A DNA stretch of 64,000 bases. Origin: Amoebophrya sp. A120. Lineage: Eukaryota; Protista; Dinoflagellata. The notes below the pieces were generated by a model that searched no databases, was not told the origin of the DNA, and saw only the letters and a list, made by a program, of their open reading frames with translations. Positions 12,001 through 59,555 of the stretch are shown here, piece after piece. A program made the translations under genes and the position numbers. The stretch covers positions 6,939,612-7,003,611 of the forward strand of contig CAJINV010000003.1 in NCBI GenBank assembly GCA_905178155.1, read 5' to 3'. Each line of letters starts with the position of its first letter. The first letter of the stretch is position 1.

Positions 12001-15000
12001 GCTCCCGGGAGAATCTGGCGCTGCTTTCGGCAGAAGACGAAGTTGGTCGTGTAGGGCAGGGAGTACGTTTTGGTATTGTACAGGATGCACTTGCCTTGTG
12101 CGCCGACGCCGAAACCGAACTCGTATGCTTCACAGTCCGCCTTGTTGTTGCACCTTACTGCGCACGCGCGCGCGTCGTTCACATCGCGACCCTGCACATC
12201 GCCTCCGTCGATCACATCCGATCGCTGGGATAGGTCCGCATCGTAGTCTTGGTAGCTGTGTTATGCACTGCAAAAGTATCGTACTCGTGCTCGTCGTATC
12301 AACGCATATACAAATTTTCTCAGCATGAGAACTGGATTTTGTCATGCTGTTTTACTTTGAGGACAAGGTTTGTCATGCATAGTTGCAAGTACTACGAGTA
12401 CGATAGCGATACGTTTGCAATGCATATGTGTTCCCCCCCGCCAAACGGATCCGCGTCGCCGTTACCGAATCCTTGGTCCTCGCGCGGAACGAACGCATAC
12501 GCGAACAAGGCTTGATGTTGCTCGGCAGCATGAGATGCCAGTGCTCCCTGGTCGTCGCAGGTCTCGGGCCCGGGTCCTTTCCGGAGGTAGACAGAAATGG
12601 CCCATGCTCCGCCACACATGCCATCCTCGGCTGGATCGTCCCCACCAGCGCAGGGTCGGCAGGTATATTCCGGGCCGCCCCGCGGCAGTCCCGTGCCCGA
12701 GTCCGAACCAGCGCCGTAGTATCGCGTACCGTGCAACGGCTCTCGTGTAGTGGAATCTCCCGGGCTTCCCCAAAAGTAGGACCACGAAAGGCTGTTTCCA
12801 TTCTGGATGCCGAAGAAGGCAGGGCCGGCTGCCGGTTGATCTGCTCCTGCTGTGTTGATGGGCGTGGCCGCAGTCCGCGCCGCTGCCCGATTCACGGACA
12901 CGAGGTCACCCACCCCGTTATTCACCGCCGCTTGAGTGTACCCGTGTTCCTCCGCCGCGTGATAGTCGAACACCAGTGCGTTATCCAGCCAACCCATGGC
13001 CTGTTCCTGGCTACTTGCGTCTTTTGTTCTGTAGCACCCTACATAAGTGTACTCGCTTGATGACGTTTGGCTTGCGTCAGGCGTGGTCAAGGCTCGACCC
13101 GTCGTCCGCGCCGAGAAGGGTCTGACATACGCTGCCGCTGTCTGATGTTGAGTGCTGTATTTTTTCTCGGAGATCTGTTCTTGATCATGAGCACGTGTTT
13201 TTCGGTTGATGTCCACGACGTCGGGCCTTCGGCTTCTGGAGTACAAATTCCCGTTTACTACATAGTCACCATTTCTTCCATCAAGTACAACAAGTTTGGA
13301 CGGCGACGAGGCGGCATTTTTCATCTTCGAGAGCTTAAAACCCCGTTGCGGTAGTTCTTCCGTAAGTTCTTCCGACTCGGCCTCGGCACGGCTTTTTCTG
13401 TTGTTGTTTTGATGCAAAAGTCCTCCAGTTACAACCGTGCTCCGTCTACTTTCCTTATTTTCGTTGGTCCCGCTCTTTTCCTTTTCGTGAGATCGTTGAG
13501 CCAGCATAGGACGTTTGGTTTCTTCACGAGAGTCTCCTGTGCTTTCCTGCAAAAGAAGTCTCTGGCTTGGTTGTCCCAGATCAGACACTCCTGTTCCAAG
13601 ACGGATGGCGCAAATCAGCGAGAAAGCTGATTCTGCTACTGCTGATACATTGGCAGCTATCGCCAGTACGCCCCTGTCGGCGTCGATTGAATAATATCTT
13701 CTACATACTGTTTGCCCGTTAGCGCTTTCCTGCCACTCGTACATGGTGCATGCGGGGTGGTTGTTGCACTTCTGTGCGCAGACACCGTGCCGCAGGTTCA
13801 TGTACTGTCTGCGAGTTTTTCTACTGTTTGGATCGAAAGTGTCTTCGTCTACCCGGTTCTCATTTCCGGTTTTTAGCGCGCCGCCCTGATCCACGTGGCG
13901 GCACGCTGACGAGTAGTAGCGTCTGTAACCAGCGAAGGTAACGCTGATCATAGAAGGCCGCTCCCCGTCCGTCGCGGTATAGGTTTGGGAAGTCGGCTCC
14001 GCTACTGGCGCGTAAACGGGAGGAAGCGCCATGTAAAAGTCATGCGGTCCGCGAGGTTGGTGCTCGAGCGCTCGTTCGTCTTCTACAAAGAGCTGAAGGC
14101 CGCACCAGCATATATATCTCTCTTTTTCCGGATCGCCCACGAAACGCATTTTAGACCCTAAGGGTGGCAGGTTGATCCACGTTCCCGTGGTGCTCAGTGT
14201 CGGCACGGAAGCCACCGTCGTTACGTCATCCACACTAATCGAATGATTTGCCCCCAACTGATGGTTACCAGGCTCTCTGCGTGTCAGCGTCATCCCGAGA
14301 AAACGCCGCGTTGGTGGAAATTCGATCTGCCAGTACAGTTTGTTCTCGCTAGCGTCGTCGTCCCGCATTGCTACGGGGCAGTTCTGTTTTTCCCAGTCTA
14401 ATTCTGGACTAGGCGCAGTGGATACGTCAAGTGTCTTCTTGCTTTGTTCGACGGTCTGCAAGCTTGTCCGCCACGCTTTCGACCAAGACACGGTCACAGC
14501 GTCGATTTCTGTCCTCACCCGACGAAAGGGAGTTGGTCGGCGCCAGACTTCGACCTCGTAAAACGTGAGACTGCGATTGCTTCCTGGGGCTCCCACCGTG
14601 ATAATCTGTCCCACGGCCCCGCCGCAGTCCACGCGCAGCGTGGACTCCAGTGTGTCCTGCACGTCCTCGTAGGTGATCTTGCCGCAGCGCCAACCCGAGT
14701 ACAGCTGGGTTACTGGGCACCTACTCTTCTTGTCCCCTACCCAAACCTATCAAATGCAAATATGTCTGGGTCTGGAAGAGTGCAAACTTCTTTATGCATA
14801 TCTTCCATGCCCCATAAGGTTTGGAATGCAGGACCTAGCATGCCAGGTTCTCCTGCGACGTCTCTAGCTCTACCATGCCTATCCTGCATCACAAACTGCC
14901 TCTAAACTTGTTCAAAAGTGGACAGCTTTTGGTAGTCATGCAACACAAATTTTTGTACGATCCAGACTTAGCATAACAAGTTCGCGTCCCCCCAGACCCA

Positions 15001-21000: not shown

Positions 21001-24000
21001 CGGAAGCTCATTCAGCTCCAGCTTCGCATGTAGTGTGCGATATCCCAAGGAAAAACGTTCCCACCTACTTCCAACATTTGTCATGAAAATGCACGAGAAG
21101 CCGAAATAAAACGAAAACCTGTAGCATGTGCAACCACATCTTTTTTACGAGCAGTTCCTTAATGCTACTTGAGACGTTGTTTTTGTCATGCTAAAGTCAG
21201 GACGAGGACACACATGGTAGCTCGATTACGATTTCTAGCGCGACTGCACTAGCTAGTAAGAACGATTGGGCTCCTGTGTAGCAAGCTCTCTGTCTACATC
21301 TTGTTGACTTTGCGGTCGAGACGTTATGACTTAGGATATGCGAGAAGTCTTGTTCAGGGGATGGACGTTCGAAGCGACTCTGCAGCTTCCTTCCCCTCGC
21401 CGCGGGAGACTCAGCCACCCTTCGGCCAACCGGTCGCATCCCGAACGTGTATGCGGCCGACGGTCGCGTTCGCACGTGTGGTCTGTTTTCACAGGGACCC
21501 ACCGACGCTCTGTCGTACTCGGAGAGATAGGTGTAGATCCGTCGTCGCTTGATGTCGAGCTTGGTTCTGCACCGAAAATTTCCGTATCGAACAAGACCAG
21601 TTCCTGCCGCATGTGGCGGATTGGCGTAAAAACTCCAGGATCACCAGCATGGGTGTCCTCCTCACACAACTCGTTTATCACACAGGAAAGAGCTGCTAGC
21701 ATATCATATCATTTCTTTAGAGATGCGAAAAAAACAGCAGCACACAAGCTGCTAGTTGTAGAGAGAAACAAGAGGCGGAGCTCTGCATCTATTAACCAAG
21801 GCGAGGACGCAGCCAACCTGGCTGCAAATAAATCATATTTATATTTGGATTTGCACTATGAAAGGAACATGAGGGCGGAGACTTTCATCCGTTTTTCTTC
21901 ATCCACGATTTGGCTTTTTTGCAGCGTGCGTCAGGAGATCTAAAAGCATGCAAATATGCTAGTCATTTTTTGTCGTGTGATATCTTCCGCATAGGGAAGA
22001 CGGCCACCTTGCGCCTCGCAGTATTCCACGGCGTCGACTCGACCGTATATTTTCTGGCCGAGCAGCGTTGGGTTCACGTCCTCTAGGGGAACGACGAGGT
22101 CGATGAGTTCGGATTTGTTCGCTAAAACGAGGCCCCCATCCGGAATCAGTGCCGATCCTCCTGGTGCAGGAGTCTCTTCAACCGCAAATCGAAGCGGCCT
22201 CGCGCTCAAGTGCGGCGACATAAAGAAAGACTTCGACTCGAGAGACGTCGTTGAAAAGATAGGCCTCGGCGGTCGCACCGTGCTGGGATCTGTGGCATTT
22301 ACTCCACCGAAGACCCTATTCTCGAACACGTGGCGTATGTCGTACCGATTGTAAACCCAAAGGGGTTCTGGGAGCATTTCTATCAGCGGCCCCTTGGGCA
22401 GCTCAGCTCCCGCAGGTTCTGTAGTTTCATCGACTGCACCGCCCGCAGGTTCTGTAGTTTCATCCCCTGCTCCGGACGCTCCTGCCCCGGACGCTCCTGC
22501 CCCGGACGCCCCTGCCCCGGACGCCCCTGCCCCTGACGCCCCTGCGCCTGACGCCCCTGCCCCTGACGCCCCTGCTCCTGACGCTCCTGCTCCTGCAGCT
22601 CCTGCTCCTGAAGCTCCTGCTCCTGAAGCTTCTGCTCCTGAAGCTCCTGCGGCTGAAGCTCCTGCGGCTGAAGCTCCTGCTCCTGCAGCTCCTGCTCCTG
22701 CAGCTCCTGCTCCTGCAGCTCCTGCAGCTCCTGCAGCTCCTGCTCCTGCTCCTGAAGCTCCTGCGGCTGAAGCTCCTGCTCCTGAAGCTCCTGCTCCTGA
22801 AGCTCCTGCTCCTGAAGCTCCTGCTCCTGAAGTTCCTGCTCCTGCTTCTGGAGCTCCTCCCGTAGAGTCTGTGGTTCCACCACCTGCTGTGCCCGATTCA
22901 TCAACTGCTGCGTCCGCTTCACTTTTTCTACTCTTCCGCGCTGCTCCTGCCCCTGCGGGAGAGTTGAGCTGTTCATCTGCTTGTTCCTGTTGCAACGTAG
23001 GGTCGTCCACGATCTCGGTCGCGTTTGTCGCGTTTCTTTCCGAATCAGGATCATGATCGTCGAACGCCGTAGTTGGCGCATTTGCCCGCCAACACAAGTT
23101 CCAATGCGCAATGTGGTACGTCGTTGTATCGCTGGGAAAGTGGTTGAGTCTCACAGTGCTCGCGCGAAGAATGCTACTGGGACGCCTCAGGTCGTAGTTG
23201 CCGTCGGCAGCGATCTCCTGTTCCTCACGTGGCAGGTCTGTGAATATCGCTGTCGACGAGGGATCAGCCGTCCCGTATTTGTTGAAGACCATACCAGCGA
23301 AGACCTCCGTAGGCTCAGCCGCTAGACCCGAGGCCGCGGTTGCGTCGGCCCCCGCGGGGTGGCCCTCGTAGTACCGATAGCTACACCCAGACGGGGTCAC
23401 CTCCAGTTCCTGCTTGTCTTCTAGATTTACCAGACTGAACTTGTCGGGGAGCAGTCCAAGCGCCTGCGCGACCCGCCGGCAATCGAGTTCGGTGAGGGCC
23501 TCCAGGGGCGGACAGGTGAAGCCCTCTTTCGCAAGTGGCACGACCGCGGGCACCGCGACATCGTCCCAGCAAACGGACTCCACGCCAGGGACGGAGAGAC
23601 CTGCATCCATGGGGGAAGCACCATTATATCCGACTTCGGGGTCGGCGGTGTCGTCTTCCTCGTTGCTCTTGAAGTAGCATCCCCACGGATATGCGTCCGA
23701 CGCGTACGACGCTTGCAACGAAGGATCCACCCACGCGACACCCGCGACCTCGGCAAACCGTTTGCAATCTGCCGGGAGAACAAGGGCTCGCTCGCGGCAG
23801 CCAATGCTTTGGCGCTTCAAAAGCAAAGACGACGGCCGCACCCTGGTCGGGAGCCAAAGGCGGGTCTGGTGCGTGCACTGTGCATTCACTTCAGTCGCTC
23901 GAGCACACGTTTGTCGGCGCTTGCAGCACTCGGCGGCAGTGCACTCGCCCACCGCACAAAGCTGCAGGGGATCCAGGTAGTGGGGGGGAACCTCGGCAGC

Positions 24001-27000
24001 GCACTGCTCATAGAAGGATGGTGGCACGAACGTTCCGCACGGCGGTCGGGGGTGACAGCACTCGTCTTCCTCGCACAAACCGCTTCCACACACGAAGTTT
24101 CGTGTGAAGAAAAAGGTCGCGGGCTTCGCCGCGCACAAAGCGTCTAGCTCGAGATTAGTGCGGCAGATCTGAGGCGTGGTGGTCGTTGTGGTGGTGGTCG
24201 TGCTCGTGGTGGTCACGGTGGTGGTCACGGTCGTGGTGGAGGTGGTGGTCGTGGAGGTCGTCGTGGTCGTGGAAGTTTTGGAATCGTCGAACAGGTCCGC
24301 GAAGAGCGAACTCAAGGCGTCTTCCTCCTCCACCAGGGCCACGGGCTCCTCCAGCCCGTTCGGGCAGCACACGACCGGATCACTGATCTGGTAGGTCCCG
24401 AAAGCGCACTCCGCCATTACCTCCTCGGTGTCCGAGGAGAAGCAACAGTCGTCGTAGCACATCGCGATCATCTATCAAATGCAAATATGTTGTCTGGGAC
24501 TGGAAGATTAAAACTTGTCATGCTTCTAAATCTGAATGATGCAAAAATCTGTGTTGCGTGAGTGCCAAAAGCTGTCCGCTTTTGACCAAGTTGAGAGGGA
24601 GTTTCTCATGCAGGAGAGGCATGAGAGAGACCTCAGAGAATCTGCCATGCTGGGTCTCGCATTCCAGACCTCATGGGTCATGGAAAACCTGCATGACAAA
24701 CATTGCATCCTTCCAGACCCAGACATATTTGCACTGGATATCATCTCCGGCGAGACCACCACCTCCTGTTCCTCCTCCTCCTCCTCCACCGGTGCAAGGA
24801 AGGCGTTCAGGTCTGCTGCCATGCCCCCACCGTCGTCCGCCGAGGAGTCCTCCTCCTCTACTTCCCCTCCCAGAACTTCCTCGTCGCTGACGAGCTCGTC
24901 GGAGGCGCCGACTAGCGAGGCCACAGAATCCATAGACAGACCGAGGTCTGTGATGGTCTCCATGTCCAGCGTGCCGGCGTCCTGCGCAGCCACCACAGCT
25001 GCGGCCACTTTGGCCATGTTCACAGGTTGCAAGGACTTAGAGACTCCTGAGACGCCGGTGGACTCCACTTCCATCGTGGTCACTTCAGCCAGGTAGTTTC
25101 CTATGTTCGCGTCGAGGGCGGTGGTGTCGACAGCCGCCATGCGGTCGTTCACTGCCGCTGCTTTCTCAAGATTGTCTTGCGCAATCGAAAACTCGACAAG
25201 CACTGTCGCTCGTTGCGCCAGGCTCCTAAGCCGCGGCGCAGCTGCACCGTGCATTGGCTGTGCTCGAGAAGTGGAGGACCGTTCTTGTTGCCCTCCAGCA
25301 CTAGCTTGGAGCGCGTCGACCACTTGGTTTACCACCTGGGCGGGTTGCTGGTGCTGCCTTGCCCTCCTCTTGTTTCGGCGCTCACTGTTGGCGCCACGTC
25401 TGCTTGGTACGACGCTACCAAGTCCTCGTCCCGAAAAGCCGGCGCTGTTGTTCTTCCCCGAGCGTTTCGCGGATTCTCTTTGCTGGACGTCCAGAAGCTC
25501 CCGGGCTCTTTTCCGGCTTTGAAGACACGACCGAACATACTTCCGCCAAAAGTGCTTGACTCTCGCCGCAATGTTCGTGCTGCGACGCTTCGACTCCGCC
25601 CCGGCCGCAATCGCGGAAGGCGAAAACAGGCGCGGCTGATCGCTCGCGCGCTTCTGCTTTTCTGATACAAGAAATCGAAGAAATCGGTTTTTCATGTTTT
25701 TCCACAGCTTTGTCTTGCGAATCTGCTTCTGCACGCGTTTCCTCAGGCGCCTCTGCCGCCGAATTGCGAAGCTGCCAGCCTCCGACACAATTTCGTCCGA
25801 CTCTCTTTTGGCATCTTGCGCCGGTTGCTCAGCGTTATTGCCATGATGGGGCTGCTCGTCCTCGTCCAGCCGACGGACCGCAATTTTAAACCCGCCAAGG
25901 ACGACTTCTGCGAGACTGACTTGATATGTAAGTGCGAAAGAAGCCTGAAAAGCGTACGTAACCTCCTCATCCGCCCACAAGTCATCCGCTGTCGTTCCCG
26001 GTGGCAAGCTCATGCCCATGGCGGTCTGACACTCCACGACGGGCAACGTCTGCACCATCTGACCCCCAATGGAAATGAGTCCGCCGGTACAGAAAGGTGG
26101 CGGTTCATCTGTCAGGCACGCCGGATCGATTGCGGTCTTGGCACTCGCGGCCTTGGCTTCGTTCGCGGCGTCGTGGCTCTGACGCATCAACGTATGGCGT
26201 TCTCAAATGTTACATCCTCAACTGTTACATGGATTTGTAAAATCCTAAACCGACCGAAACCACAAACGCAACCCAGAATGGCAAAAGTGCAAGGGGGAAG
26301 ATTTCGCCTTTTGCACTACAGGTTTGGCACAGATTTAAACGCTGTTCAGCCCTTCGGAGATTTGTCATGCGAGGCAGCTTGATGATGTAGATAGAGATAC
26401 TGTTACTGATGAGGTGAGTTTTGCATGACAAATCCATGTAACAATTGAGAATGTAACGTTTGAGAACGCCATACAACGACGTGTCCACGTAAGCTTCCGC
26501 AACGGCTAGCGAAGACGCCTGGAAGGCTTCGCTGGTTTGTTTGGACACCCCCAGCGACTCCACGAGCGTGCCCGTATCGCGATCGTTAATCAGAGGGCAG
26601 TCCATTTCGATCACCTCCCACAAGTATCGCATGTACGACGGCGCTCGTAAGTTCGTCCCATTGAAGTCCGGCCCGGTGAATCCATTGACGGCGACGGACG
26701 TGGGAGCGCCCGTTTGAAAGTCGCAATAGGGAAACCGATCCGCCATTCGAAGCACGTCCCCACAGGTGGGGGGAAGCACACCTGCTCGCACGTACTCAGG
26801 AACTTGCACGAAGGCGTCTTCGCCATCGGGGCAGTTCAGCCGCACTTGCCGGGGCGAGGTCGAACTTGGGTCGAGGTGCTCGCGCACGAACTGCTCTGGG
26901 ACCCCGCGCTCGCCCATGCAATCCCAGTCCGGACGCCCGCAGTTGCAGTCACACCTGCCGTCCGTCCACTGGGAAAAGGGACAGGTCCACTCGCCCACCT

Positions 27001-30000
27001 TGTCAGGGCCCAACAGCCCCGTAGATGCGTCCACCGTGGGAAACCGCCACTGGTAGGCGCGTACGATTTTACGCACTTCCATCGGCCGCGTACTGCTTTT
27101 GTCCGACTTGGAACCACGGACCAGGATCTGCATGCCACTATCTTTGGGGACCTTTTTGGGATCCGAGAACCCCACCCCGTCCACCACCAGAAGCCCGTCG
27201 TGCAGTCCGTCACAAAAGATGGAGGACTGCCCCTGCAGGTACTCAATGCCGTTTTCGTCCATCCCGGGCCGTCCCGTAGCAGTTGTGAAGTCGCAGAACG
27301 GCTGCTCCCGAGCGATGCTGGTCCACCCTGCATCTTGCGTCCAGTCCCGGCGCTCGGGCACCTGATCCAAGTTGGGGACTGCCCGTGGCGCTCCCTGGCC
27401 ATCGGTAGCCCAGGCGAGCAAACTGGTGTCCGACAGCACGGCTCCCGACGCCTGCTGCAGTTTGGTCGTAAATTGAGAAAAGAGGGTCTCGGACGACGAC
27501 AACCGCAGCAAGCTCTCTCCGAAGGTCGTGTTTCGAAGCTCGACAAAGATGCGCAGAGGACGGAACTGGTTGAGGCTGGCGCCGGAGGTTCCACTGGACG
27601 CAGCGAACTGGTACAACAAAAGCGGATCTACCAGGCTCGTAACTGTCAACTTTTGCTTGGCTAGTGTAGTGAAGTAAATCCCGTTGTCGTTAGCCACATC
27701 GATCCACGCCTGCTTCACCTGCGCATTCCACTCGGAGCCGAGGGCGAGCGCCTGCGAGGTGGTGTTCTCGTGCGACGCGGTCGTGCGAAACACAATCTGC
27801 ATCTGCCCGGAAAAATCCAGGAGCGCATCCTCCGTGGCGAGTTCTCTTTTGTTCGTGGAGGAGGATAGTTGTACTCTCATAGAAGTGCTGCCTCTTCCTC
27901 CAGTGCTGGGTCGATCAGCCGGCGCAGTGTCAGCAGGGCTTGAAGTAGATGCAGTTGATTCGCCAGCAGTGAGTTCCCGGAGGCGTCGTGTGGTGGTGGC
28001 GGAGTGGTCCCTTAGCGCCCCCATAGATTGGACCGACCAACCTGTCGAGGGATCAGACAGCGGATTGGTTGCGGAGTAGGAAGCACCACTGGAGGTGGTG
28101 TTGTCGTACTGCTGCGACTGGAAAATGGCGGTGAGCTCCGTGAAATTTTGTGGGTTCAGGTTCAGATTGATGGCCGCCTTGAGGTCGTCGTAGGGAAAGG
28201 AGGTGACGCCGTCAATGTACTTGTCGAACTTCTGGTTCAAAACATACCAGCGACGGGTGGTAAACAGCAGCTCCGCGAGCACCATCCGCGTGCTCGGGTC
28301 GTTCTGCTGGGTCCAGAAGCTCTCCGCGGTGTAGCTGGGGACTTGAAGGGTGATGCCGTTTCGCTTCAGGTCGGGCGACACCAGGTGCTCCGAGATGTCC
28401 AGCTGTAGGACGCTGGCAAGCGCCGCACGCACCCGGTCCTTGAGGGCCGGGAAGTTGTCGTAGCCGACCTCCACGCCCTGTGCGGTGCGCCCCCCGGTGC
28501 TCGCGGTCCAGGGTGCGCCGGTGTTCAACGCACCGCCGGCATCGGAGAATGGTGGCGTCTGAATGACCATCAGGACAGAGTAGGTGCGCTCCCGCACGAA
28601 GCACGCACTCTTGAACGGGTTCTCGTACAGGTCGGGGAAGCACTTCTGTCCCGCCGAGGTGATCACCACGCTCTGCGAGTCGCGGAAGTACAGGTTCCGC
28701 GAATCCTGCAGCTCCGGGACCCGAACCTTCTCTAGGTCGTTCAGTGCGTAGTAGTCGTACAGGGAACTGGAGCTGGGCTGGGTGGCCACGTACGCGCGGG
28801 TGGTAATGCTGCGAACCCCGGAGAAGTCCATGCCCTCGGCGAAGGTGCCAATATCGAGTCGCTGCCGGTACGGAACGGCTTCGCCGCACGTGTTCACGGT
28901 CGTTGTCGCGGTCGATGTTCCGCTGGTCAGCTTCCGGGCGCTGGACGAGGAGGTACTAGTATTAGGCCTATCGTGGTCCCTAGAACTAGCTGCTCGCAGC
29001 TGCCGTTGGCGTCGACTGCTGCTGGCGCTCGAGGACGAAGAAGACGAAGAGGATGACATAATAGTAGAACTGCCACCCCGCATCAACATTTCCGCCGCGT
29101 CGACCTGTATTCGGTAGGGGCCGATCAGGGAGAAGGGAGCTTCCTGCTTGTCCAGCTGCAGGACGAAGTCGGTGTAGTCGCCCGACATGCTGGAGACCAG
29201 TGTGCCCGCGGAGAAGTGCCGGTGTCGAAACTTGCCCCCGAAGCTCTTCAGGTGCAGCAGCTGGGATTTCGTGGCCGCATCTGGTTTCTCCGCCCTCACG
29301 AGCTGCACTAGCTCGTGGATTCCCATGCCGAAGTCGACCTCGACCGTGTAGTTCTGGCCCAGGAAGTCGGTTTCGGGGAACCCGGCCTTGGGGCCGGTGT
29401 TGACGCGAATGATGCGGTACCAGTCCAGCACTTCGGCCCCGAAGGTTATGGAAGCGTCAGGATCGAAATTGACAAAGTTGAAATACAAACAATCTGTCAT
29501 GCATAAAATGCGACGTCTATTGCTGAGGATGCAAGGGAGGCAGATTTTTGTAGTGCTGCTAAGGGCCGCCAAGAATTGTGCTGGTGACTAGCCTGAGAGA
29601 TGTTGCGAGCTCTTTTGCCATAAACAGCATAACAAACTGGCTTTCGATACCGGCAAAATTTGTCATGCGACGACTAGAAACTGTGGGTCCAACTGGTATC
29701 CGTTTTCTGCACTACAAATTTTTTCAACTTTGTTGATTTCGATTCTGACGCTGCCATAAAGGTCCGGTTGCTGTTGAAGTCTGCGGGAGAGAGCGCGGGG
29801 TCCATTTCGACGCCCGCCGCCGCGGCGGCTTGCTGCGCCTGCTCGAACGCCACATACGTGCCGTAGGTCGCAATCGTTTCGTCGTCCAACTGCAGCACCT
29901 GCCGCCCGTTCACGTCGCCCTCGGGCCGGTACTGGCACACGTACTGGTTGAACTCGTTCTTGTTGGTTCGCCCCCCGAAGAGGTCGTCGTACGGACACAC

Positions 30001-33000
30001 CTTGCACTGGCCGCCCCCCATCTCCTCGTATTCCTCCTGATGCCCGAAATAGCCGTACAACATAGTCTCGCCCGGCAGCTGCATCGAGTAGCAGGGCTCG
30101 CTGATAGCCACCTCCTCCTTCGATGGGTCGTAGATGGGGGCGGTGCACCGGCCGAGCGGCGAGCAGATTTCGTGGGGGGCGCAGTACCGGAGCTTGAGCA
30201 ACCCCGTGAGGCAGTCGGGGTCGGTCATGCCGCAGTTGCAGTCGCAAAACAGCCCGTCCATGTAGTTGTTCGGGGGGCAGACCCAAAGCGCGGGGTTGGA
30301 CACCGGAGGGAAGGGGGTCGTGGGGCGGGGTACCTGGAAGTTGAGCCGCTGGGAGCCGATCGAGGTGCCGCGCGTCACTTTGATGGCGGTGTTGTTCACG
30401 CGCGTGGTCACCAACATGCGCTCCACACCCATGTCCCCCGTCACCTGTACGAAGAAGGGAAAGGGCACGGTCCACAACGCGATCGGCGTGCGCAGCCGCA
30501 GCACCTTGTCCGCCTTCGCCGGCTTGTCCGCCATCACGTACGCCGGGTTGAAGAACTTCGTCTTGCCATCGCAGATGATGCCGGCCGCGGAGTACTGGAA
30601 GTTGTTCACGTAGGCCGCGAACAGCATCCAGTCGGTAAGCATGACCGGCACCCGCGCGTAGAACATCTGGACGACGTTGTCCTTCACGGAGGCCGAGATG
30701 TTGAAACCGGTGTCCACCCCGTACAGGACGCGGAGGTTTCGCTCAACGTTCACCTGGTACTTGCCGTAGGCCACGTTCTGCATGAACTCCTTCGCGGCCA
30801 CGGTGCCCCACCCGGAGGACAGGATCAGCATGTTGTCGAAGGAGGCCTTGCGCTTCCAGGTTCCCGTTTCCACGTTCGTGTACAGTTCGGGCGACCAAGT
30901 CCAGTTGGACGTAGTCAGCGTGGTCAGCATGGTCTTCCGTTGGTACTCGCGGTTGAACTTGAGTAGGTAGGGGCGCAGCGACTCGTACTGGTAGCGGTTC
31001 ACGAACCCGACCTGCAGCTGGCAGTTCTTCAGCGCGGACAGCTCGGTGCGGTCGAACCGCATGAAGCCCTGCGCATCGTGGTCGAAGAAAAACTCGTAGC
31101 TGCGAAACACTCCCAGATCGTTGTGCGCATATCGCAACGACTCGTCGAAGGCATGCGTGGTGGACGCCACTGCCATGTCGCGCAGATTGCGCGTCAGGTT
31201 GGCGAAGGGCGACTCCTGATCCGACCCTCCGTAGATGTACGAGTTGAAACTGATACTGGTGCTCTCCATCGCCCCGAACGCTACCGGAATGGGGAGGGTG
31301 TAGCTGGTCATCCCGAAGTGCATGCCCAACTTGTCCACCCAGGAAATTTTCGCGAGCGCGGACATGTCGTCCGCCTCGTAAAACTATCATACTGAAAAGC
31401 GCCCGCAACCTTGAATGTTGTATGAAGGTGGAACATTTAATTTTTGCCAAAGATTGTTGACACGTACGACGCATGGCTTTAGCCAGCTGCGCAGTCAATG
31501 TTGTTTATTCATACTGTAGTACAAAAATAATCCGCGACCTACAAAACCAAAGTTAGTAGGCGACGTCTGTCAGCTCCAAGTTGCAGGAACAACGTTGGAC
31601 TCCGAGTCAAAACTATGCGTCGTACTATTATACTTCCCTTCATGCAAAAATACAAAAAGCTTGAGTGTGCTGTAGGGTTTGAGATGCAAAGTGTTCTGTC
31701 TTCTGGTTGTGGGGCGCCCGCCCTTTTCAGTGCAATAAGAACTCGATCCGCTGTGTCCAGTCGAACGTGAGTGCGGGCACGTCCATGTAGGGCTTCTCCG
31801 GCATGATGCGCTCCGGGAAGCTGGAGTAGTACAGCTCGTTAAAGTGGCACCCCGGAAGGGGCTGCACCGTGTTGGGGTCAGCGTCCAGAAACGCTCCGCT
31901 GGAGAAGTTCAGCTGCGCATTCCGTTCTTCCATGCTCACACTGGTGCCCCGGTAGTTCGCGAGCCCGGGGCACACGTAGTCGAGGTTCAGCTGCACGTCC
32001 CCCCAGGGCTCCAAATTGGTACTGTCGGACGTGAGCAGGGAGGCGGAGTTCCAGCCGAACACGCAGACGAAAGCAAACAGCATGGCAGAGCACGCGGCGC
32101 CACAGAAGGTGGGGGGTAGGTCGGTTGCCTCGGTGTCGCCGGCGCGGTCCATGCGCCGCGCGTTCAGGTCTGTGTATTTGATTGCCCAGTTATGGAAGCG
32201 TCAGGTTTGAAATCGTCAAAGTTGAAATAATTTGTAATGCATAAAATGCGTGACCCGCGGTACGTGTGTTGCAGAGCAGGCAAGTGAGGCCTATTGTAAG
32301 CCTGTTTGGGGTTAAAGCTCGAGCTGCTAAAGTAGCATGAGAGAATCGCTCGTCTTTGCCTAAACAGCATGACAAACTGGATTTAGGGACCGCCGAAATT
32401 TGTCATGCGCCACTTGGAAACTGGGCTCCAACTGGCATCCATTTTATGCATGACAGATTATTTCAACTTTGTCGATTTCAACTCTGACACATCCATACCA
32501 GTGCGGTTCGTAGTATTCAATGTCGGTCCGCTGGATCTCGTCCTCCCAGGGCTCGTAACGCCCCAAATAGAGGTATCCTGAGTAAAAATGTACCCACGCC
32601 AGAGTTGTAATGCAGATTTGCAAAGACAGGAAGACTTGTGATGCGCATCCCCATGAGAGCCATTTCCAATCGTGTTTTGGAATTTGTGATGCTGTGAACA
32701 GGATGAGCAGATGAATCTGTGATGCGGCGGCACTTGCTAACCTGCACTACACTGCATAGCGCAACTTGTCATGCGTGACTCACAAAGCTCCTAGGTTTGT
32801 GTTGCAAAATCCCCATCCTGACTCTGGTGTGGGTACGTTTTTACTCAGGATAAGAGGTAATTCCACCGCCACCGCTCATCAGGAAACCGACCCGGGAGGG
32901 CGGGAATTTTTTCGATTTCTGGTTCCGCCTATCCGAGTGCACAACCCGCCCTCTCAACATCTCCCTTCGTTGGAAAAGTAAAAAGCTGGTCGTGGGCCAG

Positions 33001-49788: not shown

Positions 49789-52700
49789 TTACGTCGCCAC
49801 GGTGGCAGAAGAGCTTGCCGGTCCAGAGCTTTGCTCGGAATCGCGCTGCCGCTGCCGCTGCTCCGCGTCCAGCTCCGCACGAATACGCTTCTGGTCCGCT
49901 TTATGGATGTGTCAGGTTTGAAATCGTCAGAGTTGAAATAGTTTGTCATGCTAAACCGACCGAAACCACTACACAACCTGTAAGGGCACCTCACCGCATA
50001 AAATGGATGCCAGTTGGAGCCCAGTTTTCAAGTGGCGCATGACAAGTTTTGGCGGTGCCTAAATTCAGTCTGTAATGCTGTTTGGGTAAGGAAGACGCCT
50101 TTTGTCATGCTACTTCAGCAGCTGTATCTCTACCCCTCAACAGGCTTGCAATATGCCTCCCTTGCCTACTCTGCAAGACAGGCGCTTTGTGGGTTGCATT
50201 TTATGCATCGCAAATTTTTTCAACTTTGACGATTTCAATCCTGACGCTTCCATACGCTTCATTGACGGGAATCTCGGTCACGTTTTGCTGCTCGCCGTAT
50301 CCACAAAAAAACCACCATCCCCATCCAATTTGTCATGCAAAACATGTATAAAATCCTGTGTCTGTCATGCATAAGATGGATGGGGATGGTTGTTTTTTCC
50401 TGGATACGCCACTGAGAACCCTCTCCGCGTACTCAATCATGTCTTTGCACTCTCGCATCAGCTTTTTGCAGTCACAGCTTTTCTCGGTGCGAAAAAGTTC
50501 CAGGGCTTCCCCAAGTAGTTTTTTCCCTTGCGTGTACGAGTCAGCCTCGCCGCACCAACACAAAAATTCTCTATGGAAACGTCAGGCTTGAAGTCGTCGA
50601 GGTTGATATAAATATGGTGATATCAATTTCAATTTCCGTGCCAACTACAAACCGACCGACACAACAAACACAACTCGTGGGGCACATTTCCGCAGATGGC
50701 CAAGCCAATGGGACGCAGAGTCAAGCGGACCGAAGCCACCACCATTAGTATCCTTGGATTACCTACCGTAAAGGAAGCCACCACGACCTCCAACAATTTT
50801 CTACGCGTAAAACTGGCAGCAGTTGGAGCTGGGTCCCTAACTTCTTCTTCACTTGGAGGTCACGCATTGCAAATGCTGGGAGCGCCCGGATTCCCACAGT
50901 CATACTGTTTGGGGCACCTCCGGTGCGCTTGTTCGCGATGCTATGGCTAGTAACCCTGAACAGGTCCACAATGAAGCGACCGCGTTTGCCTTCTCTACAA
51001 GACAGGCACTTCGGGCCTCGCTGCATTTTGATTTTATTGAATATGTATACGTATGCATCGAAAATTATTTTCATTTTGAGTTCGTCGACTTCCAACCTGC
51101 CGCTTTCGTATTCGCCCGCGAGTTTGTAGAAGACCCCGGCGTTCCCATCCTGCTTCACGGCGGGGTCCTTTTTCAGGCGCTCGGAGTATGCTGTTTGAAA
51201 TCATCTTCACCCAGTCGCGGAACGATCAAGCACGATCAGGATCCGCATGCATAGCGAAAATGGTGCAAAGCCCTAACTGTTGATGCCAATCCTCGACACC
51301 CACACGACCACACTACGAATAAAACGCACCCTCCTCGTTACGAGGTTTTAATAGTACCTTGAGAGTACCGTTGGGGAAGATTTCATCAGTACAACTCACA
51401 GAGGATACTACTCCCTCTGTCACAACAGGCGTGAACTCGCGAAACTCCACCCGATTTATTGTGTCAACGTGGTGCGTTATCGTTTCCATCAGAAAATTAT
51501 GGCACTCCATCAGCTGCAGTATGTCTACACAGTCCTTCCGCACTGCGATTTGGTAGGCTTTTTTGAGATGTTTCCGCGCTTCCAACCTCTTCGTCGAGGT
51601 AGTGGAGGACGTTCTGGCGGCCTTGGTAGAAGAAGTCGGCGTCGCGGTCGTGGACGACGAGGAGGTCGTACTTGCACCAGTAGGTGCAGCAGTGGTCACA
51701 TCCTCAACTGAAATCCCATCCTCGCCCTCCGTGTCCGGAAAAGAAGAGGTCGAAGCAGACATGCGCCACTATGAATCGCTCAGGTGTTGCAATCAATCTC
51801 AACCAGATCTGGTGCTAATGCATTCATATATCAAGAACAATCTGTTGCTGGGCAGGATTTCGACTTATTTTTTCTATGTAACACATAAAACAGCCAAATG
51901 CCTGCAGCTCTCTGCGGTCCTCAGACAGAGCAGGCAGCACATGAAGACAAGGTGTGAAGAATTCGCGGAACTACACCCACCAGCTGCACTGCATCCTAGT
52001 ACTCCGCGTGTCCTGCTGTCTCTGGTCGTTGGTCCAACGCCACCTGGTCGTTGTTTCACCAACGTGAAAAAGTTCCGTTTGCCTGGTAACTACAGTGAGT
52101 TGAAATGGTAACACCCAAGCGAGTCATAGCCATTGGAGACGTCCAAGCTCCTGGTACCCCGAGCACGTCAAAGGACTAAATGCGCCGCAAGTCACTTCGT
52201 AGCAATGAGACGCCTCCTTCAACAGTTGCTCGGCTTCTGCTTCTCGGTCTCGGCCGAGCTGCGCTAGTATCTTTGCGAGTGCGACGCCCGCTTTTGCCTG
52301 AAGTGAAACAGAAATGGCACGAAAATGAGACTCCAAAAGTTCATACATTTCGCGACAATGCAGCAGGATCCTCCAGCATCCGTGGTTAGACGAAGACTAC
52401 TTAGCATCGCTGGGCTCACTTCAACTTTACTTCAACAAAAACAGAAAATAATCATCCAACAGAGGACAAGGAGTGTTCCACTTTCGCAGAGTACATGTAG
52501 TGCTACTAGTGGCTGCGGCATGTCCCCGAAATATTAAAATGGAAACCTGCAGGCTGTTTAGCTGTCCGCCGGAACGGCGACGGTAAAACTCATAGGCTTG
52601 TCGAACAATTGTTTCGGCCTGTTCGGTCTTCTGCTGACGATCTCGTACAAGGCCAAGCCCCAGCAAAACGCCACCCTTTTGACTGGTTGCAGACTCGTCA

Positions 52701-55700
52701 TTTTGACAAAATTTCAGGGCCGCGGAAAAGTATTCTTCGGCTTTTTCGTAGTTCCCGAGGCTGAAAAGCGAGAAGTTTAGCTTTGTTCTTGATCAGGAGC
52801 ATGCATGCGCTGCAGTATGCATGTTCGTGAGCGAATTCAAATCATATCGGTGGACCTTAGAACGTGTCAATTGCTTAACTTTATCTTTCGTAAAAGTTGA
52901 AATTAATCATGGTAGACGAGAGGACCGAGGAAGTTTACAAAGTCGCGACAACATCGAAAGACGATGGCGACGCCATGGTGACGATGTCGACCTTGCAAGG
53001 GGAATGTTGTAGTTTTTGACACATCGCGTGTCAATCCACTACTTGCAAGAGCAAGTATGAGCAAAATTATAGCGACAGCAATATCTACCCTGCAAAATGA
53101 AAATCTACTTCTCCTGTGTCTGTCCGTCGCTTGTATATCTTATCATTTTAAATTGTAGTACCTGTTATAGGTGTGCGCAATGTTTTCGCAGAGGGCGCCG
53201 TTCGGACCCAGCATGTCTTCCATCTCCAAGAAGAGCGGTAGTGCTTCTCGAAATTGGTTTTTCTTCCACAGCACGAAAGCGTAGGCCTGGATCCCCTTCA
53301 ATTTGTACTTGGACTGCGGGTGGGCGCGACAGACCGGCACGATCTCCTCCAGGTACTTTGCAAGCATATTGAGGCGGTACAGCTGAATTGAGTTGTCAAA
53401 CAGCTCAAAGAACTTGTCCAGTGTTTCCGGGGCGTTGAGTCCTTTCGCCTTTCGAAGGTCCAAAAATTCCCGCTCGAGAATCACCTCATCGTTCTCGTTC
53501 TTCGCGGCATTTTCCGCGTCATCGTCGGGGTTGAACTCGCCGCTGATCACAGACTTCAGCTGAAAAGTTCCAGCATTCTTGCCGGTGGAGGGCGGCCCTC
53601 CTGAAGAGGCTTCGACGCCGTGCGGGGCACTAGATAGCTCTTGCTGCATATGGCTGTTTCAGGATCGAAATCGTCAAAGGTGAGACGATTTGCAATGCAT
53701 AAAATGCATGACCCGAGGTGCGTGTGTTGCAGAGCAGGCAAGTGAGGCCGATTGTAAGCCTGTTTGGGGTTAGGGCTCGAGCTGCTAAAGTAGCAGGAGA
53801 AAATCGGTCTTCTTTGGCTAAACAGCATGACAAACTGGATTTAGGGACCACTAAAATTTGTCATGCGCCATTTGGGAACTGGGTTCCAACTGGCATCCAT
53901 TTTATGCATGACAAACCATTTCAACTTTGAGGATGTCAATCCTGACACATCCATACTGCAGGGAGCTCCGGAGGGCCGCGGCTTCCCGCTTTCCCACACA
54001 TTTCCACTTCTTCCCGGCGGTTGTCTTCACCAGCGTCACGCTCAGCTGTTTTTTGTCGACCTTCTTCAGCTTTTCAAGCTGCCAGGCGCTTTCGTCCACG
54101 TCAATCTTTCCGATCAGCTCGTCCTCAAACAGGAGCTCTTTGCTATGGATGTGTCAGAGTTGAAATCGACAAAGTTGAAATAATTTGTCATGCATAAAAT
54201 GGATGCGAGTTGGAACCCAGTTTCCAAGTGGAGCATGACAAATCTAGGTGGTCCCTAAATCCAGTTTGTCATGCTGCTTAGGCAAAGAAGAGCGATTTTC
54301 TCATGCTACTTTGGCAGCTCTAGCTGTAGCCCCCAACAGGCTTAGAATCGGCCTCACTTGCCTGCTCTGCAACACACGTGCCTCGGGTCATGCATTTTAT
54401 GCATTACAAATTATTTCAACTTTGACGATTTCGATCCTGACACTCCCATATTTGCCGATCACAACTTTCAGCGAGTCCTTGCGAATGTTGCAGTGGACGT
54501 CTCTCGTTCTTTGGCCATGTCTATTCGTCTCCCTGTGCTCGCATAAGAGCACTGCAGCAGCCGGGGCAGAGACGCCAAAAAGAAAGCGCTGCGAAGCAAA
54601 TGCAATTAGGCAAGAAGGCGCGAAGGCAAGGGCGAAAGGACCAGGCCGAGAGCTTTGGCGCGTCTATCCGGCAGGCGCGTGAACTCTCCGGCCTTTTCGG
54701 CAGAATATAGACGGGCTGAGGGCAGCAGAGGGCGCTCGTCTTTTCCCCTCGGCCCCGCTTCCCAGGGTCTATTTGCGGAGTTCCTTGAGCACTTTTCTGC
54801 GCTAAACTTTGCTTATCACGGTCGAAAAGTGGCGCTCGGTGAGTTTTGGGGTGAATTTTGAAAAGGACGCCGGTGAATTTTGTCCTCCGGCTCCTTTTCA
54901 AAATTCGCTAGCGCGTGAGAAACTCCGGGTTTTGGGGCTTCAACAAAGTGTCGCCAAAACAAAAAGTCCCAAAATTCACCAAGGGAATTCTTGACCTGGG
55001 GATCACGTCGAATAAGACTTGCTCCGGGGGCAAAAAGACACGTGGGGAGTTGTGAGCAGAGCACAGCAGGCGAAGCAAGCTAGCGCCCGCGGCCGAATCG
55101 TGCCTCCCCTTCCACCCGAGGCTGCTCCCAGATATCCAAGTCCAAGCCGAGCCAACCACAACTCGTGAGAGCATACATGTTGAACTAGTGCCCCTGTGTT
55201 CAGGCGTCGCCCTCCCTTTCGACCATTTCGGAGAGGAACTTCTGAGGCAGACGCGCAGAAGACTAAGAGCCCCCCGACCCACCTTCTCTGGTCGCTAGAT
55301 ACGCACTACACAGCCCGGCGAGCCCCCGCAAGACCACCTCTTTTGGTGCTGCAAGCGCCACCACGCGACGAGCAGCCCTTCAGGCTATGTGGTATGCTTG
55401 GGCTCGTGTCCATACGTAGCGCTCTTTTCTTTTAAGTAAATGCAAGTCATGCAATACAAACTCACTGCAAATTCACACTTCTGTACGCTAACGACCGTTG
55501 AAGACATAGGTTCTTTGCCGATCACAACTTTCAGCGAGTCCTTGCGAATGTTGCAGTGGACGTCTCTCGTTGACACATCCGGGGCGCACATGAAATCGAG
55601 CTGCAGCTCTTCATCGTTTTGGGAGAGCACAAAATTGCTCCCGCTCGAAGCAGCAGTAGAAGCGGACGCTGCGGGCGCAGAGAGATTGGAGCAGGAGCTT

Positions 55701-55729
55701 CCATCAACCATCTTCACAACTTGCGGCAC
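49789..55729 (-). CDS. CS (p23/NudC-like) domain plus TPR-repeat protein; 7 introners, 2 GT-AG introns (52298-52546, 52761-53161) and a 1-kb long-DR insert
   Basis: SQNDEELQLDF...DVHCNIRKDSLKVVIGKELLFEDELIGKIDVDESAWQL...LSVTLVK...W is CS-like; NIAHTYNSLGNYEKAEEYFSAAL is TPR-like. Exons join in frame to TAA at 49789. Start codon uncertain (GTG 55729 or ATG 55711), and intactness across 54451-55571 is unproven. Confidence 0.75.
49902..50254. mobile_element. Introner family B (orientation 1)
   Basis: TATGGATGTGTCAGG ... CCTGACGCTTCCATA; perfect DR cgctt; NEA|DQKR. Confidence 0.92.
50298..50406. mobile_element. Introner family C (109 bp)
   Basis: TATCCACAAAAAAACCACCATCCCCATCC ... GGATGGGGATGGTTGTTTTTTCCTGGATA; DR cgccg/cgcca; LSG|EQQN. 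Confidence 0.92.
50572..51110. mobile_element. Introner family B, degenerate and expanded
   Basis: TATGGAAACGTCAGG ... CCTGCCGCTTTCGTA; DR ttctc/ttcgc; AGE|FLCW. Confidence 0.85.
51187..51407. mobile_element. Highly degenerate introner-derived intron
   Basis: TAT...ATA ends with weak residual IR; DR lost (cggag/ctact); removal plus 5 nt gives EGV|ERLKKD in frame. Confidence 0.6.
51770..52128. mobile_element. Introner (singleton)
   Basis: TATGAATCGCTCAGGTGTT vs reverse-complemented end TATGACTCGCTTGGGTGTT; DR gccac/gccat; LQW|RMSA. Confidence 0.87.
53649..53955. mobile_element. Introner family B (orientation 2)
   Basis: 307 bp; perfect DR ctgca; SLQ|QELS. Confidence 0.92.
54144..54450. mobile_element. 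Introner family B (orientation 1)
   Basis: 307 bp; perfect DR tttgc; IGK|ELLF. Confidence 0.92.
54451..55571. mobile_element. ~1-kb insert (54509-55513) flanked by a 58-bp duplication of coding sequence
   Basis: tttgccgatcacaactttcagcgagtccttgcgaatgttgcagtggacgtctctcgtt at 54451-54508 and 55514-55571; interior non-coding with nested inverted repeats at 54838-54980. Confidence 0.65.
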
Positions 55730-56605
55730 TGCTCCTGGACTATATCACAAGAAAAATTGTACCCCTGCAACCTTCTTGCACTTGCTTCATCAATTTCTAT
55801 GAAGTTCCATCATTTTTTCTGTTTTTCTGTTTGAAACGGCCCTACATAACTACAAAAAAACATCTTCTGAGAGGAAACAACAACATGCGGTGGAGGTCGC
55901 CGGGGGTACAATTTTGATTGCGATACCACAACGCTAGTATCCGACACCATAATATCAGAATATAGAAGTAGATGACACTCCTGTCCTGGAGAAGGGATAG
56001 GTTTTCATCTGGTCTACAATTTCATGAAAACACGTCGACAAAGTTCATAACCATTTAGACGAGAAAAGGAAAACAAAAAGAATAAGAAACTTGGACTACT
56101 AACTTGCATAATGATAATGTGAAAGCAATGACAACGCTTGACTTTCAAAGTCACTTTGATCTTCTCCATCATATATTCTCCGAGGAAAATCAGAAACCCC
56201 TGCACGTGTTCACAAGTTGATGCGATCCTGATTCGGAGGACTTCGTTTCAAATGCTTGATCCATCATCCTGCAGAACCAGGAGCCGCTCAATCATAGATA
56301 CAAAGCACACCTGGCATCGTGCGGATGGTTCTGCGACGAGCTTCGTTTTTGCCGATGAAGAAGCAGAAGAAAAAACGTTGACATCATGCTCCTGAGAAAA
56401 GTGGTAGTGGTTGCAGCTAAGCTGCAGGAGGTGTTTCCTTGTTCTGCCGGGCAGTCACGATGCTGCACAACACGAACACTACGACGAGCACAAGTGATCT
56501 ATTGGGTTTGCGTCAAGTCGTTGGTCATGCGCACAACTCCGATTTGGAACCTTTCACTTTCTAGTGCAGCTCGTCGTGTACGTAGTTTGTCTTTATTGGC
56601 ATTTA

Positions 56606-59555
56606 TCAATTATACATACAAAGGCCCAGCGCTGCTTCCCGGCGCTTCGGACGGGTGTATTCCCAGCCGCGCACAACTCGGTGCACCTCGTGACCCGTGT
56701 CCTCCTGCTCATGATCGCATCGTTCGCGCATAGCAGCACAGTCACGAAAAATGTCAAGGTTCGCGGCTGTACGATGATCACTACAGTGTGAGTGATGCTC
56801 ATCATCATGTGATGTTCCATGAGCCAGGTGCTGTCCTCCCCGACCTGCTCCTGCTCCTTCCTTCCTCATGTTTTCAAAATTTACCTGAACGTCGCCGGTT
56901 GATCGCTCATGCTCGAGTAGTTTTGCGAGCATTGGGACGGGAATGTATTTTTCTTTCTCAGAAATCCAGTTCCAGTCGAGGTCCCCGAAAAACGCATCTG
57001 CACGGATATCGGAGGTCCGTCGCGCACCCAGCCTGTCTTTGGGTCTCTTTTGCAAAAGGTGTCGTAAAAACGTTTTTGCGTTGGGCGATATCTTCACGCC
57101 CGGGGGTCCTCGCACGGACGCCCGCTGCGTTGGCTTTGCTTCATACAGAATTGGATGAGAAGTCGACGAGCGTTTTTTTGACGTCCGCCCTGGCCCTCCG
57201 TCATGAGTCGTTTTTTCACACGCAGGAGGTCGTGCTGAAGAGGTACTAGTACCATCCGCCTGGTTAGCAGCTGCAGTGTTAGCAACGCCGTCCTCTTCGA
57301 CAATAAAGGAGGCGGACAGCAAATGGATGCGTCAGGTTCGAAATCGACAAACTTGAAGTGTTGGCTTGGCATGCGTAATAAAACCGTCCGACATGACCAG
57401 CTTGGCCCCGCCCAATTCTTAAGCGCCGCAAGCTAAATCCAGTCTGTCGCGCTGTTTGGAGAAAGAAGTCTGGCTCATCTGTCATGCTCCTACTTTAGCG
57501 GACTTATCTCATCTACCCCAAACAGGCTTACAATCGGTCTCACTTGCCATCCCCGCGAGGCAGGCACATACATTGATTGTGCCACCTACACCTTGCATTT
57601 TATGCATTGCGAGATCTCATTTTCAACTTTTGAATCTCTATCTCGAGACTGACGCTCCCATATAGCAAAACGTCGATCGGCTTTTCCAGGATGTTTCGAA
57701 ACAGCCGACGTCGGTCCCGAGTGTTATGGCGTTCTCAAATGTTACATTCTCGACTGTTACATGAATTTGCAATGCAAGAATAGCATGGGTCAGAGGGAGA
57801 ACCTTGCGCGTCGTGCATTACAGTTTTGGTGCAGATTCTAGTGCTATTTAGCCCTCCGAGAATTTGTCATGCGAAGCAGCTTCATTGTTTGGTGGCTCAT
57901 GGTCATTTTGCATGACAGTAACAGTTGAGAATGTAACGTTTGAGAACCCCATAAGTGTAAAAGGGGGGCGTGCCAGACAGCATCTCGAACAGTAGGACCC
58001 CGAGTCCATAAGTATCGAGTGTGTGTCCGTGCCCCCGGCGCTGCAGCATTTCCGGTGCGAGGTATGCCACGGAGCCGCAGAAGCTTTCGCCAAGTTGCTT
58101 CTTCGAGGTCGTAGTTCCTTTTTGCGCTGATTGCTTTTCGCGTTTTTCCTGCGGCTGTGAGATCTTCTGCTCCTGTGGCAGCGCCAGCGGCTGACCACAC
58201 TGCACTGCTTGTACGGTCGCTGGTGGTCGTGCAGACGGCGCGTTTGCAACTCCATTTGTGGTCGTGGTGCGCGTGGGCAACAATTGCTCGTCTTCCACAC
58301 TTGTTGCGACTGGAGTCGATGTCGCGGCTAGTATGGAAGCGCCATCTGTGATCTCGACAAACTTGAAAGTATCTATCTGTCATGCGCGAAGTGCTAGGCT
58401 GGACAGAATACGCGAATAGGAGAGCAAGCAGATGACGATGAAGACGATTGTAAGCTAGGCGCAAGAATCTGGCTGGTTACTACAGGGCATGCCATGAGCA
58501 ACCACATTTGCACCAATCAGCATGCCCACGCTCAGTCGGATTGGGATGTTCGCAAAATTTGTCACGCGCCGCTTACATATTGGTTTGGGGGCCAAAGAAG
58601 TCGAAGCGGCGGCGATGCTATGCGTCGCAAATTGTTTCAACCCCGTCGATTTCAAGCCTGACGCTTTCATAGTTGGGGAGGGGAGCGTCGAAGTAGAGTC
58701 GGCCGGCGAGGGGGCTTGGGAATGCCATTCAGATGTCGGAGAGCTGTGAAAATCATGACCGCGGCCCCCGGACGAGAAGGCTGCGCCATCAGCCTTAACT
58801 GCCGGAACGTGGATCGCTTCAGCGTCCGCTGCCGCGGCAGCCAAATAAGACGACCCGGTTGTGTAATTCAATTGCAGACTGAGTCCGAAATCCGTCAGGT
58901 AACTGTGTCCACGCGCATCCAGAACAATATTTTCCGGCTTCATGTCGCGATAAAGGATGTTGCGCTCGTGCAGGAATTCGAGCGCCAATAGCTGCTGCGC
59001 CGTGTAGATACGGGCGAGACACTCCGGGAACCGCTTTAGCTTCTGCAGTAAGTGCTGCATGTTGCCCCCGTTACAGTACTCCAAGCAGAGCACCAACTTT
59101 GTCGGAGTTTGAAAAGCGTAATGGAGCTGAATGATGAAATATCCACGAAAAAACACCCATCCCCATCCAATTTGTCATGCAAAACATGCGTAAAATCCAC
59201 TATTTGTCATGCAAAAAATGGATGGGGATGGGTGTTCTTTCCTGGATATGAAAGGGTGGTTTGTCACAAAGGACAGCACATTGCGCTCTGTTATCGCGTA
59301 GCGAAGCAACCCTCGTCGGCAGATTCGCTCTTTCGTCAGTACTTTCATGGCGAAATATCGAGGCCGAAGTGCTGAAGACGAACTGCTAGGCAACGCGCAG
59401 TTGGAGCTCGAGTTGCTGGCTCTGGAGGCTGCTGGAATCCTGGTAATATCCCCCGCTCGCTCGCGCTTCTCTTGAACAAGATACACTTCGCCGAAGCTTC
59501 CCTTGCCGACCTGGCGGAGGACGATAAAATCCTCCGGCCGCGCGTGTGGCGTCAC
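56606..59555 (-). CDS. AGC-family Ser/Thr protein kinase (S6K/Akt-like) with 4 introners; true N- and C-termini uncertain
   Basis: VGKGSFGEV, FAMKVL, HPF|IIQLHYAFQT, YRDMKPENIVL, DFGLS, SFCGSVAYLAPE, GTPPFY, LLQKRPKDRLG. Confidence 0.9.
57322..57662. mobile_element. Introner family B, degenerate
   Basis: AATGGATGCGTCAG ... CTGACGCTCCCATA; DR cagca/tagca; DVLL|SASF. Confidence 0.85.
57725..57953. mobile_element. Introner family D
   Basis: Same TIR as 26193-26473; perfect DR agtgt; PFYT|RDRR. Confidence 0.93.
58332..58671. mobile_element. Introner family B, degenerate
   Basis: TATGGAAGCGCCA ... TGACGCTTTCATA; DR gctag/gttgg; SPT|ATST in frame. Confidence 0.85.
59140..59248. mobile_element. 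Introner family C (109 bp)
   Basis: Homologous to 50298-50406; perfect DR tgaaa; restores kinase HPFI motif. Confidence 0.94.

Follow-up and report, generated by a model that had tools for sequence, protein, structure and literature searches.

A paired, phased motif shared by families of TAT...ATA-ended introners in Amoebophrya sp. A120

A short motif recurs inside many families of TAT...ATA-ended inserts in Amoebophrya sp. A120, and our analysis confirms that this recurrence is a real feature. In the 64-kb stretch of DNA that we analysed (the window), the 8-mer TGTCATGC/GCATGACA is one spelling, the most frequent, of a longer site that mostly comes in pairs. Judging from the sequence, we consider it probable, at roughly 60%, that the motif is a phased DNA site bound by the machinery that moves these non-coding TAT...ATA transposons.

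TGTCATGC is the commonest 8-mer of the window, with 47 exact copies (30 forward and 17 reverse). Dinucleotide shuffles of the window held 2.66 copies on average and 7 at most, and none of 100 reached 47. All 47 copies lie within 35 hand-curated TAT-ended inserts totalling 10,611 bp; the long exons of the window hold none in 22,768 bp. Since one insert (10132-10392) entered the curated set because of its two copies, the assignment of 47/47 is partly circular, and a mask built by BLAST from family members gives the fairer figure: 7.15 copies per kb inside the mask versus 0.086 outside it in the window, and 6.28 versus 0.19 per kb in 681 kb of related loci. In the window, five sites with a score of at least 12 lie outside the curated inserts. 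All 14 family consensuses contain TGTNATGC, with 46 copies in 3,293 bp where about one is expected. These results bear out the original prediction that the 8-mer is enriched in the inserts and rare in long exons, that it occurs in both orientations inside families A-F (one to three exact copies in each of the 14 named elements) and that every family C copy carries it twice. The insert at 10132-10392 is an old, TAT-ended one without a matching duplication; by eye, it lies within a - strand stretch with GT-AG borders.

The related loci came from metagenome contigs scanned with the family B end. The scan yielded 108 loci (L001-L108), all from one assembly, that amount to 681 kb once overlaps are removed and in which family B is over-represented by design. 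From window and loci together, 383 candidates gave 352 copies: 318 grouped into 14 families with at least two members each, and 34 singletons. When element ends were sought without assuming any letters, one clear class emerged, TAT...ATA with a 5-bp duplication (TSD). In the window, 18 of the 29 hits started with TAT; across loci and window combined, TAT starts reached 249, whereas no other start exceeded 3. Duplications of 6 bp gave no TAT signal in the window and loci scans. Within the TIRs, positions 11-14 are A at 76-90%. Median element length ranges from 116 to 322 bp across the 14 families (318 copies). Short, present in many copies, bounded by TIRs and a fixed-length TSD and devoid of coding capacity, the elements resemble MITEs in these respects. 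Elements of the window are listed in Table 1.

Table 1. Inserts of the window, with duplications, motif sites and target words (window coordinates)
Element	Position	TSD	Motif sites	Target word	Remarks
Family A, long derivative	995..1606	CTCTA			Internal block common to L101 and L062
Family B	3192..3510	GCATC	Pair 3318-3357 (32 bp)	TAC 3526-3528, - strand	
Family F	12262..12426	TGTGT	Pair 12340-12378 (31 bp)	TTG 12442-12444, - strand	
Family A	14748..15023	AAACC	Pair 14940-14978 (31 bp, - strand)	TTG 14730-14732	
Older E-like	21041..21338	TGCGA	One exact motif, 21184		
Family A	24473..24740	TCATC	Inward sites 24516, 24691	TGG 24756-24758, - strand	
Family D	26193..26473	CAACG	Single sites 26363, 26423; no full pair		
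Family B	29447..29758	AAGGT	Exact motifs 29495, 29661		
Family B	32191..32497	CCAGT	Pairs 32233-32272 (+), 32335-32374 (-), both 32 bp	TAC 32513-32515, - strand	
Family E	32574..32852	AGAGG	Same-direction pairs 32606-32644, 32685-32725, 32767-32805 (31, 33, 31 bp)		
Family A	33353..33623	GCCTT	Three exact motifs	TTG 33639-33641, - strand	
Family F	33665..33817	GCACT	Pair 33710-33748 (31 bp, - strand)	TTG 33833-33835, - strand	
Family B	33874..34180	GAGAA	Three exact motifs	TAA 33856-33858	
Family E	34230..34509	TGAAG	Pair 34341-34381 (33 bp)		
Family B, reverse orientation	49902..50254	CGCTT	Pairs 50071-50110, 50173-50212	TAC 49884-49886	Element + 5 bases skipped in likely RNA
Family C (109 bp)	50298..50406		Pair 50331-50370 (32 bp)		Element + 5 bases skipped in likely RNA
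Old B-like	50572..51110		One weak site		Skipped in likely RNA
Old TAT...ATA insert	51187..51407		No motif site		Skipped in likely RNA
Old TAT...ATA insert	51770..52128		No site scoring 10 or more		Skipped in likely RNA
Family B, forward orientation	53649..53955	CTGCA	Three exact motifs		Element + 5 bases skipped in likely RNA
Family B	54144..54450	TTTGC	Pairs 54267-54306, 54369-54408		
Old E-like insert	55743..55925		No motif site		Skipped in likely RNA
Family D	57725..57953	AGTGT	Four single sites		In kinase gene
Family C	59140..59248	TGAAA	Pair 59173-59212 (32 bp)		In kinase gene

The original prediction called the TIRs of families A-F unrelated. With motifs masked, these families were unalignable in pairwise comparison (highest z 4.9). 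However, a TAT start and an A run are common to all TIRs, and end variants such as TATGCATTGCAAA are common to families A and F, so the word overstates the case. We rejected a reading of the TIR start as itself a copy of the motif (mean score -9.7, with a shuffle control confounded by the A run). Some elements are longer than usual or rearranged. Long family A derivatives (995-1606, L101 15324-16419 and L062 from 1631) share an internal block that is ~87% identical, contains a 35-bp tandem duplication and has no protein match. Family B and F elements with captured interiors occur at L061 2114-3966 (1.9 kb) and L025 8799-9843 (1.0 kb), and these interiors gave no Pfam match. A similar extra block lies directly after the first motif site in a family D copy (26226-26260) and a family B copy (49952-49980), hinting at exchange between families.

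The full unit, summarized as a matrix, reads AYYTGTNWTGCW. Same-direction pairs at 31-33 bp made up 24 of 115 and were found in 13 of 14 families, where random placement gave a mean of 3.3 and a maximum of 12 in 5,000 draws. In many cases the first site is followed, 15-16 bp on, by a weaker copy in inverted orientation. Three turns of B-DNA take up ~31.5 bp; since the spacing comes close to this length, binding on one helical face naturally suggests itself. The site is also phased with the element end. Consistent with a prediction that the motif sits just inside the TIR, the outermost inward-pointing site starts 33-37 bp (8 ends) or 41-45 bp (11 ends) from the end at 19 of the 28 family ends, and a single start at 56 bp brings the total to 20; the remaining eight ends open with an outward-pointing site. 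The two main start classes lie about one helical turn apart. With family D excluded, the full pair was present in 57 of the 61 youngest copies versus 55 of the 74 oldest. None of the 11 family D copies (two in the window, nine in the loci) has it; at one end, this family retains half-sites in the +15 and +32 registers. Within families, pair spacing was barely steadier than in control segments (0.81 versus 0.73 at the mode). Inverted pairs available for a hairpin comparison numbered only 5 and 4.

We examined how the motif changes over time, using trees of seven families. Relative to the remaining non-CpG columns, its core was substituted at a rate of 0.28 on internal branches and of 0.48 on terminal branches (Fisher p 4e-6 for the difference). 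Motif columns anchor the alignments and so look more conserved than they are. The slower change on internal branches fits the direction expected with selection on source copies. Among 537 copies gathered without a TAT/TSD filter, core decay went from 0.044 to 0.142 across age bins, and other near-fixed columns of the same copies decayed faster (0.077 to 0.202). By both measures the motif changes more slowly than its neighbours, and a repeated subterminal motif is conserved along the amplifying lineage. The residual constraint on terminal branches may reflect unsampled amplification history, alignment bias or real post-insertion constraint, the last of which is possible.

A different explanation for the sharing is that one ancestral module of ~44 bp was inherited by, or swapped between, the families and that the motif is its neutral relic. 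Spacers are slightly alike across families (similarity 0.337 versus 0.255 shuffled), which makes a shared ancestral module possible, and both the degenerate inverted copy at +15/16 and the alignability of some of the extra families (4/7/13 and 5/12; masked z 8-61) would suit it. However, the six core bases are kept while the spacers drift at background and the two variable (N/W) positions near it, and no masked comparison among families A-F exceeds the z of 4.9. We therefore regard a neutral relic as highly improbable.

The original prediction also allowed for a splicing factor. In this case, the motif would aid splicing, either in RNA as a branch point or enhancer or in DNA as a mark to which the splicing machinery is drawn while the gene is transcribed. 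Among the 324 copies tested, 274 lie within a reading frame whose strand could be called with confidence, and since 258 of these 274 lack a GT/GC-AG register, an unusual splice signal would be needed. GCATNACA contains a UNAC that resembles a branch point, and residual constraint on terminal branches would also be in keeping with such a role. However, GCATNACA and TGTNATGC were nearly balanced on the sense strand of the 274 in-frame insertions (415 versus 403), and only 136 of the 274 carried GCAWNACA within the last 70 nt. Orientation of the element relative to the gene was 30:31 in family B, 6:12 in family E and 4:3 in family C, with a borderline skew in family A (38:22, p 0.052). Families E and C insert both ways although all their sites point one way. 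Moreover, core divergence was equal in copies within ORFs (0.071, n=220) and other copies (0.080, n=43; p 0.69).

Contigs that are likely RNA point the same way. In runs X1 and X2, which are one sample and which, together with X3 and X4, we took by guess to be RNA, seven TAT-type inserts were skipped with five extra bases (among the joints listed, 15 of 57); run X5 showed none of the seven skip joints (again among the 15 of 57 listed). Two of the skipped inserts are family B copies in opposite orientations. In this small sample, three of the seven lack any site with a score of at least 10, a fourth contains a single weak one, and none of four canonical introns contains a motif site. Together, the lack of strand bias, the skipping of inserts without a site and the equal conservation inside and outside ORFs make an RNA signal unlikely and leave the splicing-factor option unsupported; we give little credence to a role in splicing at either the RNA or the DNA level. 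Removal from RNA would depend on the element ends rather than on the motif.

The window has other features. Likely RNA contigs jump from 54136 to 55512, an exact 58-bp duplication occupies 54451-54508 and 55514-55571, and 54500-55500 is multi-copy in DNA run X5. Long - strand frames (up to 2,058 aa, with laminin G and PAN matches) extend from ~470 to 32200 and are interrupted by many introners. A large gene at 20800-35200 is without exon-spanning cover in X1 and X3.

We determined whether insertion follows a target sequence at 297 insertion sites (window and L001-L108), using shifted positions as controls. At 253 of the 297 sites, at least one flank has a T 13 bases ahead of the duplication, versus 134/301 and 126/305 in controls. 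The word that begins there spans -13 to -11, is sharp at -13 and differs by family. TA(A/C/T) occurs at 59 of 78 family B sites and at 5 of 125 sites of families A and F; T(T/C/G)G occurs at 92 of 125 sites of families A and F (A 57/73, F 35/52) and at 6 of 78 family B sites (controls, 90 and 166 of 1,815). In family B the word is one-sided, with 58 sites on one side and 1 on both, where a symmetric expectation gives 36.9 and 11.5. We detected no relation of the word to gene strand, no significant tie to element orientation (p 0.09-0.86) and, by eye, no match to the element ends; the word is also present at 9 of 11 non-coding insertions. Family D, the same family that lacks the full pair, has the -13 T at 2 of 11 sites.

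Since target words differ by family under one geometry, they suggest several related enzymes, and the shared motif thus more plausibly marks where a conserved domain or a common helper binds. The original claim that one transposase serves all families is weakened by this sharp difference, and a single shared enzyme is doubtful. Its broader proposal of a common protein site fares better, as the motif is enriched, is conserved above its neighbours and unites families A-F that cannot be aligned once it is masked; binding itself we infer.

A model that accommodates most of these data is that a protein would occupy both sites from the same face of the helix, in phase with the element end, and would help assemble the transposition complex. 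If the site were needed for this complex, only copies with intact sites would seed new copies. Given the family-specific target words, a single enzyme would be less likely than either a set of related transposases that have kept one DNA-binding domain or separate enzymes for each family that rely on a shared helper. Several observations count against this mechanism, among them the spread of family D without the full pair and a core rate on terminal branches that is still just about half of background. More tentatively, the introners could be carried along by an as yet undescribed type of eukaryotic DNA transposon that uses a two-part code, in which the shared phased site loads a common factor and a family-specific part reads a 3-base word 13 bp to one side of a 5-bp cut.

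The paired site might instead be occupied by a host double-strand DNA-binding protein, such as a chromatin or transcription factor, that acts outside any transposase by favouring copying or by shielding. Such a protein would explain why families with different TIR bodies and target words have one motif in common, and the text of PMC7789003 reports no transposase in A120. However, the site is nearly absent outside the elements, as the densities outside the BLAST masks and the five outlying sites indicate, and it is phased with element ends, making a host protein of this kind unlikely, if less so than a neutral relic or a splicing signal.

We searched for a partner of the non-coding elements. 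The window and the 681 kb of loci, a small sample of the genome, yielded no transposase or autonomous element, and neither the long elements nor the unpaired ends contained a transposase frame. Among twelve frames of the window, the only matches were to Fcf1, kinase, laminin G/PAN and sugar-transferase domains. Viral contigs scanned with the family B end, the family A end and the paired site gave no match. An integrase-like reading of a 92-aa frame (1174-1449) in the long family A copy, which rested on a resemblance to a motif, was abandoned, as the frame had no Pfam match and no homologue (a weak negative). The window also contains a near-perfect 57-bp palindrome at 60380-60436 and an exact 56-bp direct repeat (37611-37666/39004-39059) that flanks a GC-rich stretch.

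The class of element is already published. According to the text of Farhat et al. 2021, A120 introners have inverted repeats with a TAT start, ~7 variable bases and an A run, come in many families, carry direct repeats of 3-5 nt and are removed without GT-AG signals (PMC7789003). The motif-bearing inserts match this description in the TAT start, the A run, the duplication at the borders (5 bp) and non-GT-AG removal, and thus probably belong with these introners. That paper finds no transposase in A120 (section 16) and argues against transposase-driven movement. Its text on introners describes no internal motif, 31-33 bp pairing or offset target word. Gozashti et al. 2025 describe, in the portion of PMC12130899 that concerns A120, a family 38 of TIR DNA elements of ~810 bp with a 5-bp TSD and TA/TA termini, whose frames resemble Copia/Gypsy (LTR-element) sequence. 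Family 38 shares its TSD length and termini with our elements, and a coding element like it is absent from our 352 copies; on the published description, it is the best lead to a partner.

Other systems share some of these features. IS3EU/GingerRoot elements resemble ours in having TA..TA termini and TIRs, but PMC10045372 and PMC6839031 describe duplications mostly of 6 bp whose sequence shows no evident base preference, whereas our elements duplicate 5 bp and have a one-sided target word. We therefore did not assign them to IS3EU/GingerRoot, nor to Ginger2/TDD, which is described with TG..CA termini where the ends here are TAT..ATA. The Emigrant MITE of PMC1636448 is likewise non-autonomous, and its subterminal repeats are bound besides its TIRs; the account there has Lemi1 proteins binding cooperatively. 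By analogy, the motif most likely works in the manner of the Emigrant subterminal repeats. However, Emigrant is described as one pogo-like family, whereas the motif here spans many families with different TIR bodies. Barley Helitrons, in the account of PMC5738225, also use a short, asymmetrically placed target word that lies roughly one helical turn away from where they insert, but our elements differ in their TIRs, 5-bp duplication and family-dependent word. As words, TGTCATGC/GCATGACA matched text only in unrelated papers. Literature searches and the passages compared yielded no account of the motif or its 31-33 bp pairing, and the papers compared give none of family-specific target words. 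To the published class we add the motif in a second assembly, strand and tree tests, and the family-specific target words.

Our findings suggest several ways forward. The shared paired site provides a bait for pull-down and a signature for locating an autonomous partner. As the motif seems not to be needed for splicing, the search for a splicing signal narrows to the element ends. The one-sided, family-specific target words point to several mobilising enzymes and to an unusual choice of target, and the paired site bears on the spread of tens of thousands of non-canonical introns in Amoebophrya.
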